Shown here: positions 4,254-51,102 of the stretch, in pieces
Layout: each line of letters begins with the position of its first letter
Position numbering within the stretch: the stretch's first letter is position 1
DNA from: a virus
Strand: one strand, 5' to 3'
Virus record (IMG/VR): IMGVR_UViG_3300042868_005761
Location: 32,001 to 96,000 of that record
DNA length: 64,000 nt
Program-made: the position numbers and the translations under genes
Notes under the pieces: model-generated
The model's database searches: none
What the model was told of the DNA's origin: nothing
Seen by the model: the letters and a program-made list of their open reading frames with translations, nothing else

Positions 4254-4327
4254 GGACTCATATCTCAATTGGTCAGAGAAGACGGCTCATAACCGTTTGG
4301 TTCTAGGTTCAAGTCCTAGTGGGTCCA
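4254..4327 (+). tRNA. tRNA-Ile2 (CAT anticodon, lysidine-modified, reads AUA)
   Basis: Acceptor GGACTCA/TGGGTCC with C4-G69; anticodon arm GACGG-CT-CAT-AA-CCGTT closely resembles Bacillus-type tRNA-Ile2; T-loop TTCAAGT; next to tilS. Confidence 0.85.
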
Positions 4328-4348
4328 CTTAATTTTGTCTGCTATTTT

Positions 4349-4421
4349 GCGACGGTAACTCAGTTGGTAGAGTAGCGGACTTTTAATCCGTCAGTCGAGG
4401 GTTCGAGCCCCTCCCGTCGTA
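4349..4421 (+). tRNA. tRNA-Lys(TTT)
   Basis: Acceptor GCGACGG/CCGTCGT; anticodon arm GCGGA-CT-TTT-AA-TCCGT; GTTCGA T-loop. Confidence 0.93.
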
Positions 4422-4440
4422 CTGGTATCTTATTGTTAAT

Positions 4441-4515
4441 CGGGATGTAGCGCAGTGGTAGCGCGCTTGCTTTGGGAGCAAGATGTCGCAGGTTCGATCC
4501 CTGTCATCCCGACCA
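4441..4515 (+). tRNA. tRNA-Pro(TGG), CCA encoded
   Basis: Acceptor CGGGATG/CATCCCG; anticodon arm CTTGC-TT-TGG-GA-GCAAG; ends ACCA. Confidence 0.95.
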
Positions 4516-4516
4516 T

Positions 4517-4589
4517 GCTTCAATAGCTCAGTTGGTAGAGCCCTGGTTTTGTAAACCAGTGGTCGTAGGTTCGAGTCCTACTTGAAGCA
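4517..4589 (+). tRNA. tRNA-Thr(TGT)
   Basis: Acceptor GCTTCAA/TTGAAGC; anticodon arm CTGGT-TT-TGT-AA-ACCAG. Confidence 0.93.
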
Positions 4590-4637
4590 CTTATAATTAG
4601 TTATTTGAAAATTAATCTGTAACAAAGGAGATATATT

Positions 4638-6118: not shown

Positions 6119-6298
6119 TGCCTTTGCTCAGGTGGCGAAATCGGCATACGCAGCAGACTTATAGAAAATTTGAGCCCTATAGGGGAAACCTTATAGGTGA
6201 AGACAATCAAATTCGGTGAAGGCTAAACTAGTTTACTAGCATGCTAATACCGAGCTAAGCCTTAAATGGCAAACACACAGTTTATTCTCCATTACCTA

Positions 6299-6307
6299 TG
6301 CTATAAT
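6299..6307 (+). promoter_or_regulatory. Extended -10 promoter (TGcTATAAT) inside the intron, probably driving a leaderless HNH mRNA
   Basis: Perfect TGnTATAAT followed by 6 nt and then ATG at 6314; no SD sequence. Confidence 0.55.
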
Positions 6308-6313
6308 ATTACT

Positions 6314-6751
6314 ATGAGAAAATATAAAGATTATACAGATCAGCAAATAATAGATGCTGTTAAGGCTAGTAAAAGCATTTCCCAAGTACTTAAAGTTCTT
6401 GGGCTAAAGCAAGCTGGAGGTAATTACGCAAATGTCCAACGGAACATCCAAAGACTATTGTGTGACACCTCTCACTTTACTGGCAAAGGTTGGAATAAAG
6501 ATCAACAGTTGAAAGACTGGAGTTCTTATTCTAAAGCTGCTAATCTAAAACCTCATTTAATAAAAAAGCGTACTCATCAATGCGAACAATGTAATCTTTC
6601 AGAATGGCTTTCTGAGCAGATAAAATTGGAAATACATCACATTGATGGAGATAGGACAAATAATGTAGAAGAAAACTTGCAGTTGCTTTGTCCAAACTGT
6701 CATTCTATGACAGACTCTTGGAGAAAAGCAAACCATTTAAGGAAAGTGTAG
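6314..6751 (+). CDS. Intron-encoded HNH homing endonuclease (ORF open from 6266; likely start 6314)
   Basis: CEQC...LEIHHIDGDRTNNVEENLQLLCPNCH; N-terminal helical DNA-binding-like segment; stop codon falls within the intron core element GTGTAG. Confidence 0.88.
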   Translation: MRKYKDYTDQQIIDAVKASKSISQVLKVLGLKQAGGNYANVQRNIQRLLCDTSHFTGKGWNKDQQLKDWSSYSKAANLKPHLIKKRTHQCEQCNLSEWLSEQIKLEIHHIDGDRTNNVEENLQLLCPNCHSMTDSWRKANHLRKV

Positions 6752-6902
6752 AGACTAGACGGTTGTTACCTAATGTAGAAATACTATGGTAAAGGTATAG
6801 TCCAGACCACAAACGGCATATGCTGGTAGTGAAAACTATAGTGGTAAGAAAATCTGCCTTCCTTGGAATTACGGGTTCAAGTCCCGTCCTGAGCACTTAT
6901 TT

Positions 6903-6984
6903 GGGAGTATCGCATAGTGGCAATTGCAGGGGACTGTAAATCCCCCGACTTCGGTCTACGTTGGTTCGAGTCCATCTACTCCCA
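6903..6984 (+). tRNA. tRNA-Tyr(GTA)
   Basis: Acceptor GGGAGTA/TACTCCC; anticodon arm GGGGA-CT-GTA-AA-TCCCC; long variable arm GAC-TTCG-GTC. Confidence 0.92.
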
Positions 6985-7030
6985 CTTTATATTAATTCTA
7001 TTTAAACTTTAATAGATTATAGGTTTTACT

Positions 7031-39540: not shown

Positions 39541-39613
39541 TCTGGCTTAGCTCAGTAGGTAGAGCAAGGGACTGTTAATCCCTGGGTCACAGGTTCGAAT
39601 CCTGTAGCCAGAG
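39541..39613 (+). tRNA. tRNA-Asn(GTT)
   Basis: Acceptor TCTGGCT/AGCCAGA; anticodon arm AGGGA-CT-GTT-AA-TCCCT; G73 discriminator. Confidence 0.93.
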
Positions 39614-39640
39614 CTGATTATCTATATTTTAAGGAAAACA

Positions 39641-48477: not shown

Positions 48478-48491
48478 GAATGGAGATTAAA

Positions 48492-49025
48492 ATGAATAAG
48501 ATTAAGTTTACCCTAGTTTCGTTTCTTGCTACCCTACTTGTAGCTTCAACTGCTTACGCTACTGAGTGCGTCACCACTGCAGATTGCGCTACCGGCGAAG
48601 TCTGTGCTGCTGTTGCTAGTGCAGAGTGTCCTCCTTGTGCCGAAGGCTCAGCCTGTGACTCTTGTGCTACCGAGCTACTTGCTTGTGTCCCAGAGGAAGT
48701 TCCTGCTCCTTGCGATACCGCTACTTCAGGTTCCGGTTCAGGTTCTGAGGGCTCAGCTGCCGTTGATCCTGATTGTGGATCTGGAGAAGCTGATGCTGGT
48801 GGTTCAGGTTCAGGTGAAGTCACTCCCGTAGATGGTAGTGGTGCTGACGCTGGTGCTGACACTGCTCTTACTGAGACTGATGGTAGCGGCTCAGGAGCGG
48901 CCGCCACTGCCGATAAAAGCAAGGACCAGTCTGGGTGTTCAGTGGTTTCTAATACTGCTGGCGTCTTCGGTCTTTTTGCTATAATTGGCGCTGTGGTTTT
49001 CTTCCGCAGACGTAACAATATCTAA
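48492..49025 (+). CDS. Secreted Cys-rich surface protein with a MYXO-CTERM-like C-terminal sorting signal
   Basis: Sec signal peptide ending AYA; 10 Cys in the ectodomain; G/S/D linker; SGCSV, TM helix, then RRR. Confidence 0.8.
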   Translation: MNKIKFTLVSFLATLLVASTAYATECVTTADCATGEVCAAVASAECPPCAEGSACDSCATELLACVPEEVPAPCDTATSGSGSGSEGSAAVDPDCGSGEADAGGSGSGEVTPVDGSGADAGADTALTETDGSGSGAAATADKSKDQSGCSVVSNTAGVFGLFAIIGAVVFFRRRNNI

Positions 49026-50000: not shown

Positions 50001-50045
50001 AAAAGAAAACCCCAGTCATTGATTTGGCTGGGGTTTTTTATTTCT
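50001..50045. terminator. Bidirectional rho-independent terminator between the convergent arms
   Basis: AAAACCCCAGTCA-TTGATT-TGGCTGGGGTTTT flanked by A-runs and T-runs. Confidence 0.88.
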
Positions 50046-50057
50046 ATCTAATCTAGT

Positions 50058-50258
50058 CTACTTATTTTCAAGTTTCTCAACTCTAGCAGTTAGATCAAAT
50101 AGCTTGCTGTTCATATCTTTTTGTTCTTGCTCTAGCACTGCTTTCAGAGCTCCTACTTGGCGCAGTTTAGGAATACCTTCAATAATCTTTTGAAGATCAT
50201 TGATACGTTTTTCAATAGCACCAATTCTTTCTAGAATATAGTTATTATCAATAGCCAT
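50058..50258 (-). CDS. Small coiled-coil protein at the end of the lysis region
   Basis: Heptad pattern; GGAGGAG RBS. Confidence 0.7.
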   Translation of the reverse strand: MAIDNNYILERIGAIEKRINDLQKIIEGIPKLRQVGALKAVLEQEQKDMNSKLFDLTARVEKLENK

Positions 50259-50557
50259 TACTCCTCCACCTTATCTTCTTTTATTTTTGTATCCGTGCCT
50301 CTTGTTCTATCTATAACATTAGCACCCATATATAATCCTACAAGTCCTACAAAAGCAGTAGTAAATACATCGTCGCCCATTAGCTGAGGAATGATGTAAA
50401 GACCAGTAGCTTGTCCCACTGGACTCATAAGATATAAAAATGTTAACGTATGCAAGGCCCAGTATACCAGGCCAAGCTTACGACTAATATAGCTACTCTT
50501 GTCCCCAAGAAAAGCTCCACTAAATCTTTTGAAGAGTATAGCGGAAAGATTAAACAT
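50258..50557 (-). CDS. Putative holin
   Basis: Two hydrophobic segments, SRKL motif, charged C-terminus; follows the endolysin. Confidence 0.6.
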   Translation of the reverse strand: MFNLSAILFKRFSGAFLGDKSSYISRKLGLVYWALHTLTFLYLMSPVGQATGLYIIPQLMGDDVFTTAFVGLVGLYMGANVIDRTRGTDTKIKEDKVEE

Positions 50558-51102
50558 TATTTCTTACCTAGGTAACGCACAAATCCCACAAGCTTAGCTT
50601 CGTCAAGGTTACGCGAGCGATGATAGACACCGCCACCTTCACGGCTACCGGCCTCATTAGTGTTGCCTTCTATTGTGCCAAACTTAGTAGCGCTAAACAT
50701 AATGCCATCACATATACCAACATGGCCAGTATGTCCTTTAATAAGTCCAGACTGCACTCTTGGTACTTTGACCGGATCACTGCATAGAACAAAAAGATCA
50801 CCTGGCTCAATCTTGAACTTACCAGCTTTTACATCAGCTGGAAGAAAACGTACAAAGTCTTCACGAGTTCTATTACGCGCCCAAAAGCCCATTATAGCTG
50901 AGCTTTGCTTGCCAGCAGGGTTAGCACCAGGATAGGCTTGTCCAAAGACCCAAGCAACAAATGCAGCGCACCAGGCACCACCTACAAGCCAAGCACCAAC
51001 GTACTTCTGAAACTCTTCAACACGAGGTCCGCGGTTACTGTTAGTTGGAATTTCACGCACACCAACTTCTTTTAAAGCAATATCTACAAGATTTTGATTC
51101 AT
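50557..51102 (-). CDS. CHAP-domain endolysin/amidase
   Basis: AWCAAFVAW, PGDL, GHVGI, TIEGNT. Confidence 0.88.
   Translation of the reverse strand: MNQNLVDIALKEVGVREIPTNSNRGPRVEEFQKYVGAWLVGGAWCAAFVAWVFGQAYPGANPAGKQSSAIMGFWARNRTREDFVRFLPADVKAGKFKIEPGDLFVLCSDPVKVPRVQSGLIKGHTGHVGICDGIMFSATKFGTIEGNTNEAGSREGGGVYHRSRNLDEAKLVGFVRYLGKK

Follow-up and report, generated by a model that had tools for sequence, protein, structure and literature searches.

Bases 32001 to 96000 of the 176,231-bp IMG/VR virus record IMGVR_UViG_3300042868_005761 (40.3% guanine-plus-cytosine [GC] content), a stretch of 64,000 nucleotides referred to below as the window, contain a gene for a small exported protein whose phage family probably represents a divergent and AT-adapted version of the MYXO-CTERM proteins of Myxococcota. 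The protein is organized with an N-terminal signal peptide, a Cys-rich head, an acidic stalk, and a tail in which a Gly-Cys-Ser motif, a hydrophobic helix, and an Arg cluster follow one another, and MYXO-CTERM is the sorting-signal model that best matches this tail across the family. Whether the exported protein is also processed by the myxosortase pathway of its host and displayed at the cell surface is an evenly balanced proposition. Sorting signals such as LPXTG, PEP-CTERM, GlyGly-CTERM, and MYXO-CTERM are treated as cellular housekeeping devices, and a literature search that paired "MYXO-CTERM" with "bacteriophage" found, as judged by titles, no report of a phage-encoded MYXO-CTERM protein.

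Protein architecture and gene integrity

The first-pass annotation of this stretch described a signal peptide, an acidic 10-Cys ectodomain, a Gly/Ser/Asp stalk, and a Cys-transmembrane-RRR tail, and direct reading finds this anatomy to be accurate (Table 1). The 10 Cys residues lie within residues 26 to 95, with nine in the head and the tenth (residue 95) in the stalk, and the ectodomain (residues 24 to 146, 123 residues in all) contains 23 acidic residues and 2 basic ones. C149 is 28 residues from the end of the protein and is followed by SVVSNTAGVF, and the hydrophobic segment of the tail (residues 156 to 171) is 16 residues long, with no charge and no proline. The signal peptide was called by inspection, is kept across the family, and is predicted as a helix (residues 4 to 22) by AlphaFold2. 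The AlphaFold2 model, which was made on the family alignment and is of low confidence (mean predicted local distance difference test [pLDDT] score of 50), also has a beta hairpin in the head (pLDDT of 50 to 77), disorder at residues 71 to 157, and a second helix at residues 155 to 176.

The start codon at 48492 is preferred over an in-frame ATG at 48480 because of the GGAG ahead of it. Codon-level comparison of four phage copies gives a ratio of nonsynonymous to synonymous substitution rates (dN/dS) for the whole gene of about 0.17; five of the six pairs are at 0.16 to 0.20, and the closest pair has a value of 0.38. The head has a dN/dS of 0.04 to 0.13 in five of the six pairs and of 0.50 in the closest pair, the latter on five substitutions, and the values are 0.16 to 0.35 for the stalk and 0.21 to 0.50 for the tail. 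The gene is under purifying selection and is no chance open reading frame (ORF). Its GC content is 0.52, above that of its neighbors because of an amino acid composition rich in Ala, Gly, and Cys, and its GC content at third codon positions (GC3) is 0.32, much as elsewhere in the phage. This GC3 value rejects a recent capture of the gene from a host rich in GC, and the gene has long been resident in the phage. A 154-amino-acid ORF runs antisense within the gene (48554 to 49018, minus strand); the substitution pattern favors the plus-strand frame, and the antisense ORF is an artifact of the Ala/Gly-rich composition.

A family of lake phages

In a set of 5.8 billion proteins, a word-indexed search turned up 20 homologous protein clusters at 45 to 87% identity, and a profile search among proteins of near length gave these 20 proteins again. 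The contigs of the homologues, where long, are phage contigs of 74 to 176 kb from lake metagenomes; four IMG/VR contigs of 112 to 174 kb carry the gene, and the one whose ORFs are listed (L005) has the same gene neighbors. The sequencing runs that hold a large share of the window are all lake-water or freshwater metagenomes, and there is no RNA run among those listed for this stretch.

All head Cys residues, G148-C149-S150, and RRR are invariant or nearly so in the family alignment, and G-C-S and RRR are kept together in every member that has a tail (19/19). The G-C-S lies eight residues before the helix, and the intervening residues are small and variable among homologues; the family signature ahead of the helix is [S/T/A/D]-G-C-S-[V/A/T]. 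The stalk differs in length between homologues through insertions and deletions. One homologue (P0006) has a three-residue insertion at about residues 24 to 29 that gives a lipobox-like ELLAC where other members have AYA, the cleavage point, and TEC; a lipobox is missing from the cleavage region in 19 of the 20 members.

The tail compared with known sorting signals

Haft defines four Cys-containing tripartite signals, MYXO-CTERM and JDVT-CTERM, along with Synerg-CTERM and CGP-CTERM (10.1101/2023.06.07.544157). MYXO-CTERM is recognized by a signature of Gly-Cys, by a helix that contains neither charged residues nor proline, by a cluster of Arg, and by its location at the extreme C terminus, whereas JDVT-CTERM has Asp-Pro nine residues past the Cys and usually an adjacent protease gene, Synerg-CTERM has a Pro inside a Leu-rich helix, and CGP-CTERM has Gly-Pro right after the Cys (10.1101/2023.06.07.544157). 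The phage protein has all the qualitative features of MYXO-CTERM, namely, the Gly-Cys, the charge- and proline-free helix, the Arg cluster, the terminal position, and a signal peptide.

The first-pass annotation allowed that a Cys-containing tail from outside the myxobacteria, such as Synerg-CTERM or JDVT-CTERM, might fit better. This check was run, and none of the 20 members matches the JDVT, Synerg, CGP, GlyGly, or PEP signals. JDVT-CTERM is rejected on the missing Asp-Pro after C149, the lack of a CPBP gene in the phage, and the lack of a hidden Markov model (HMM) match, and Synerg-CTERM and CGP-CTERM are rejected on a helix without proline, a Ser after the Cys, and again no HMM match.

The four models matched by most family members are all myxobacterial, and all matches are below cut-off; the curated cut-offs are 20 bits for TIGR03901.2 and 25 bits for TIGR04201. 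These models are the C terminus of the MXAN_5453 family (18 of 20 members, best E value of 0.0016), the TIGR04201 Cys-rich repeat (16 of 20 members, 18.8 to 21.9 bits, best E value of 1.4e-4), the C terminus of the myxosortase-dependent phytase (10 of 20 members, best E value of 0.0044), and the MYXO-CTERM model TIGR03901.2 (8 of 20 members, 10.1 to 17.0 bits). An older model, TIGR03382 (GC_trans_RRR), matches three members below threshold. The window protein itself has only weak matches, at the C termini of two full-length families that are anchored by MYXO-CTERM (E values of 0.005 and 0.08).

Reverse search with the phage tail

A tail-only profile (A3) was built from the phage family alignment and searched in 401 genomes sampled across Myxococcota; a Myxococcota genome was located with the published TraA tail peptide (PMC11980579). 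Matches at an E value of ≤0.05 per genome were found in 73 of the 401 genomes, and six matches have E values of <3.3e-4. In Escherichia coli K-12, by contrast, there is nothing comparable, with partial matches only (best E value of 0.38). The top 20 matches include 16 with the order GC[S/A]-helix-RRR, located at the ends of long ORFs or, in two cases, forming internal MYXO-CTERM motifs. The signatures retrieved include SGCSA, TGCST, GGCSA, and SSGCSAASNNAG, the last of which compares with QSGCSVVSNTAG in the phage, and they agree with the family signature [S/T/A/D]-G-C-S-[V/A/T]. The phage-tail profile retrieves genuine MYXO-CTERM-type tails from Myxococcota.

Two ORFs of about 1500 to 1660 amino acids in Myxococcota genomes G298 and G329 (L057 and L062) have an internal GSGCSATGS-helix-RRR followed by a second signal-peptide-like segment, and read as having a MYXO-CTERM motif in the middle of a polyprotein-like gene. 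Two assemblies named "Proteobacteria bacterium" and "Comamonas sp. KCTC 72670" (L014 and L015) have, on long contigs, a TraA tail that shares 88% identity with the one in Myxococcus xanthus, and these are probably mislabelled or contaminated Myxococcus assemblies.

A TraA-type repeat-like Cys motif in the head

The model TIGR04201 derives from Cys-rich repeats in TraA and in further proteins of myxobacteria (PMC3325183). In the 176-kb phage genome it finds a single candidate, at window positions 48564 to 48608 (15.9 bits, E value of 0.0048), which covers model positions 4 to 18 of 22, and there is one matching stretch per protein. Among 121 Myxococcota genomes sampled, the model scores above its cut-off in 97, and it has no match at an E value of ≤0.01 in any of 14 control genomes. 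By BLASTP, the head aligns with several repeats of M. xanthus TraA, for example, ECNDDSQCTNGEVCA with ECVTTADCATGEVCA, with a best E value of 0.05, which is not significant; the remaining head Cys residues (CPPC-x5-C-x2-C-x6-C) match neither TIGR04201 nor anything else. The head thus opens with one TraA-type repeat-like motif, and the protein is not a small TraA. What survives of the comparison with TraA drawn in the first-pass annotation is a resemblance of the head start to TIGR04201, in the form of a single motif that stays below 25 bits in the window protein and in its homologues.

This resemblance, together with the same kind of tail in TraA (PMC3325183, PMC11980579), raises a reading in which the protein is a decoy of the TraA stalk that interferes with TraA/TraB kin recognition and outer membrane exchange, or that passes to neighboring cells by that route. 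However, TIGR04201 repeats occur in many myxobacterial proteins, with dozens of matches per genome, and the phage protein has a single motif, no PA14 domain, which is the proposed ligand-binding receptor domain of TraA (PMC3325183), and no significant pairwise similarity to TraA, so that such a decoy is improbable.

Pfam and PHROGs give no accepted domain for the protein, the head has no relative in the PDB or Pfam, and a PDB sequence search with the protein matches a GS linker only. A "Late nodulin" match in Pfam (E value of 0.015), which covers the signal peptide and the first Cys, was discarded as noise. When compared by protein-language features, the protein lies nearest to clusters of small MYXO-CTERM proteins from Myxococcota (a score of 0.84, taken as a lead only), and the head alone gives no usable match.

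Proposed processing and host

Anatomy, conservation, and motif likeness are read directly, and from these we infer how the protein may be processed and displayed, in which host, and with what function. The protein would be made in the infected cell and exported by the Sec pathway, with signal peptidase I removing residues 1 to 23. In the periplasm the 10 Cys residues would form disulfides, folding the acidic head into a small knot carried on a stalk that is long, flexible, and also acidic, and the C-terminal helix would keep the precursor in the inner membrane, with its RRR on the cytoplasmic side. The host may then treat the G-C-S, which lies immediately beyond the membrane, as one of its own MYXO-CTERM signals: C149 would be lipidated, a CPBP protease of the myxosortase type supplied by the host would cut away the helix, and the lipid-anchored protein would be moved to the cell surface, as for TraA (PMC11980579); the myxosortase MrtX cleaves MYXO-CTERM in a Cys-dependent manner and is required for surface display of TraA (PMC11980579). 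The host would be a member of Myxococcota or of a close lineage with the pathway, probably a lake lineage with a GC content above that of the phage. At the surface, the protein would most likely alter the appearance of the infected cell to its surroundings. Blocking the adsorption of further phages is the first choice of function, and competition with host MYXO-CTERM clients for the sortase is a second possibility; this competition and interference with TraA-dependent exchange are both less likely than an adsorption block.

Such processing is favored by the anatomy kept under purifying selection in about 20 homologues, the family-wide matches to myxobacterial models, the Myxococcota tails that A3 retrieves, the specificity of TIGR04201 in the genomes sampled, the protein-language lead, the location of the gene with replication genes and away from the structural ones, and the MrtX precedent. 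Several results weigh against such processing in such a host. No full-length cellular homologue was found: an exhaustive phmmer search of 1.84 billion representatives returned the family only, a scan of 185,579 species genomes gave no cellular homologue, the full-length profile has only two matches in the 401 Myxococcota genomes, both to the stalk or tail, and a search for longer forms of the protein returned none. No curated model reaches its cut-off for any family member, and the window protein does not match TIGR03901.2 even at an E value of ≤10, in the protein search or in the six-frame genome search. The best A3 match in M. xanthus itself has an E value of 0.2, and, with E. coli K-12 as the sole control outside Myxococcota, the specificity of A3 versus other phyla is poorly measured. 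The phage encodes no CPBP/Rce1-like protease (PF02517) and no sortase of its own, and has no other ORF with a hydrophobic-plus-basic C terminus preceded by G-C-S. The protein has no TraA-like repeat array and no PA14 domain (there is no Pfam match, and the protein is too short). No host link was obtained from clustered regularly interspaced short palindromic repeat (CRISPR) spacers, from a prophage, or from a cultured relative, and the GC content of the phage (40.3%), with a phage-like GC3 in the gene, is far from that of classical myxobacteria.

The main alternative is that the protein, once its signal peptide is gone, is an otherwise unprocessed type I inner membrane protein with its head and stalk in the periplasm (or in the wall zone in a different type of host), serving as a superinfection exclusion factor or an envelope modulator, with Cys used for dimerization or acylation that has nothing to do with myxosortase, in a host that need not be a myxobacterium. 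The subthreshold scores of all curated sorting-signal models, the 40% GC, the lack of a host link, and the lack of a phage sortase are all consistent with it, and the order of a helix and then basic residues is that of any generic stop-transfer anchor; the weak partial matches to LPXTG, PGF, and PVV anchors cover this helix and basic part only. It leaves unexplained, however, the invariant G-C-S eight residues before the helix amid varying residues, the specific retrieval of GC[S/A] tails by the A3 profile, and the independent match of the head to a second Myxococcota-typical model, and we hold it as a tentative possibility. As for myxosortase processing, the failure of TIGR03901.2 lowers the claim of membership but does not exclude it, because the general MYXO-CTERM model misses lineage-specific forms (Haft, 10.1101/2023.06.07.544157). 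The MYXO-CTERM call of the first-pass annotation thus stands on the qualitative features and on the family-wide best model, and falls short where the scores are below the curated cut-off and the window protein itself has no match.

The likeness of the tail and head motifs somewhat favors a host from Myxococcota, as the first-pass annotation had proposed, or from a sister lineage that has this pathway; the 40% GC and the missing host link pull in the other direction. The DnaE-type polymerase shares <31% identity with its counterpart in every deposited phage, and these phages have mixed hosts. Myxobacterial GC content is usually 60 to 70%. Two sampled Myxococcota genomes (G069 and G124) have 49 to 51% GC over stretches of 14 to 20 kb, and four of the seven phage tRNAs serve codons that end in A (AGA, AAA, CCA, and ACA) and are rare in GC-rich hosts, as would be expected of an AT-rich phage whose host is richer in GC. 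The GC mismatch is softened by these Myxococcota of 49 to 51% GC, by the A-ending-codon tRNAs, and by reports of CRISPR-linked myxophages with GC contents down to 45.9% (10.64898/2026.09.14.751636). Lower-GC Myxococcota such as G069 and G124 are candidate hosts. G069 has 47 TIGR04201 matches, and in G124 the best tail match (L101) failed the C-terminus check. Two tandem genes of about 430 amino acids in G069 (L098 and L099) end in TGCSTA-helix-RRR (WRRR and WKRR), with the GCS tails matched at an E value of 7e-5.

Genomic context

The gene is part of a replication and nucleotide metabolism transcription block on the plus strand, with genes for a DnaE-type polymerase, a primase-helicase, a dUTPase, a homing endonuclease, and RusA upstream. 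It is the third gene from the end of the block and is followed by two small genes of no known kind and then by a hairpin that looks like a bidirectional terminator. The large minus-strand genes past the terminator match no PHROG family, and their position suggests that they are structural. A role for the protein in the virion, which the first-pass annotation had named as an alternative, and membership of the lysis cassette are both disfavored because the gene sits in the replication-side block; a virion component is rejected on this location and on the cleavable signal peptide and membrane helix that the gene encodes.

TABLE 1 Features of the gene and its surroundings (window coordinates unless stated)
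Feature	Coordinates	Strand	Basis or remarks
Coding sequence, 177-amino-acid exported protein	48492..49025 (stop codon included)	+	ORF list, sequence, homologues, dN/dS
Shine-Dalgarno sequence GGAG	48482..48485	+	6 nt ahead of ATG 48492; read from sequence
Sec-type signal peptide, residues 1-23	48492..48560	+	Basic MNKIK, hydrophobic core, predicted cleavage between AYA and TE
Compact Cys-rich acidic head, residues 24-76, 9 Cys	48561..48719	+	Invariant Cys, low dN/dS, small beta hairpin
TraA-type Cys-repeat-like motif C-x5-C-x2-GE-x-C	48564..48608	+	Aligns to TIGR04201 positions 4-18
Disordered acidic Gly/Ser/Asp/Ala stalk, residues 77-145	48720..48926	+	pLDDT <50; length varies through insertions and deletions
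Tripartite C-terminal tail, residues 146-177	48927..49022	+	S-G-C149-S (Cys codon 48936-48938), helix 156-171, R172-R174, NNI
Strong hairpin terminator	50004..50039		15-pair stem flanked by A and T runs; between converging + and - blocks
Likely lysis cassette	50058-51102	-	Beyond terminator
66-amino-acid coiled-coil protein	50058-50258	-	Likely lysis cassette
Holin-like 99-amino-acid protein	50258-50557	-	Hydrophobic segments
CHAP-type endolysin	50557-51102	-	Likely lysis cassette
tRNA genes	4254-4590, 6903-6985, 39541-39614; genome base 20462		Seven: Arg-TCT, Met, Lys-TTT, Pro-TGG, Thr-TGT, Tyr, Asn

The proximity of the lysis genes raises the question of a lysis accessory of the unimolecular spanin type, which would use its helix at the C terminus and its head at the N terminus to bridge the inner and outer membranes and would help to break up the envelope during lysis. 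No spanin-like pair was recognized in the cassette at 50058 to 51102. The gene is about 1.2 to 1.5 kb from the holin-like and CHAP-type endolysin genes, the long stalk could span the periplasm, and one homologue has the lipobox-like LLAC at its cleavage site. However, the gene is on the opposite strand to the lysis genes with a strong terminator between, 19 of the 20 members have no lipobox, and the disordered acidic stalk is, to our knowledge, unlike those of described spanins, which we count against this role. A spanin is very improbable.

A scan of the whole window with Rfam at gathering thresholds found six tRNAs and no group I intron, the region 6126 to 6895 included.

Implications

If the protein is processed by a host myxosortase, its motif would be a host marker for a large group of uncultured lake phages without a cultured relative, and these phages would be using the MYXO-CTERM pathway to put their own proteins on infected cells. 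The protein would also be a small and simple substrate (about 150 amino acids when mature, with one signal Cys) for studies of myxosortase recognition. If it is unprocessed, it would be a membrane protein of a kind usual in phages, and its resemblance to MYXO-CTERM would warn against inferring hosts from short motifs. A more far-reaching account, which we consider unlikely, is that a lineage of AT-rich lake phages of about 150 to 176 kb infects uncultured freshwater Myxococcota and displays, via the host myxosortase, a miniature "TraA stalk plus anchor" made of host-type modules. The infected cell would thereby be relabeled, with superinfection blocked or with kin recognition and outer membrane exchange disturbed, such that neighbors are unable to deliver toxins or share goods; if so, a virus would be hijacking bacterial C-terminal sorting to manipulate social behavior.

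Comparison with known systems

Unimolecular spanins of the phage T1 gp11 type have a lipobox and a C-terminal helix and are encoded in the lysis cassette, whereas the phage protein has no lipobox and is encoded outside the lysis cassette. The JDVT-CTERM/MrtJ pairs of Pseudomonadota (10.1101/2023.06.07.544157) share with it a single Cys-containing tripartite tail that occurs once per genome, but the phage lacks the Asp-Pro nine residues past the Cys, the adjacent CPBP gene, and an HMM match. The MXAN_6627.5-like family (Pfam PF28081) consists of small exported MYXO-CTERM proteins, and the protein-language likeness to it is the lead noted above; the head alone gives no match.

TraA of M. xanthus (MXAN_6895), which contains PA14, TIGR04201 repeats, and MYXO-CTERM (PMC3325183), shares with the phage protein a signal peptide, the C-x5-C-x2-GE-x-C module, and a Cys-helix-Arg tail, and both proteins are predicted to stand on a stalk at the cell surface. 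They differ in length (177 amino acids in the phage, 714 in TraA), in the PA14 domain that the phage protein lacks, and in the number of repeats or repeat-like motifs (one versus nine), and the phage stalk is a disordered acidic Gly/Ser stretch whereas that of TraA is formed by stacked repeats.

MYXO-CTERM proteins (TIGR03901.2), which are processed by MrtX, MrtC, or MrtP, are confined to Myxococcota, including Bradymonadales, in organisms that have a myxosortase and many clients. The phage family departs from them in being phage encoded, in scoring below the cut-off, and in having a single Cys and never GCGC, and its helix is rich in Phe, Ile, and Met instead of Leu and Ala, in line with the AT-rich genome. 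In common are the location at the extreme C terminus, the Gly-Cys, the helix free of charge and proline, the Arg cluster, and the signal peptide, and a [S/T/G]-G-C-S-[A/T/V] signature is shared by the phage family and many of the tails retrieved from Myxococcota.

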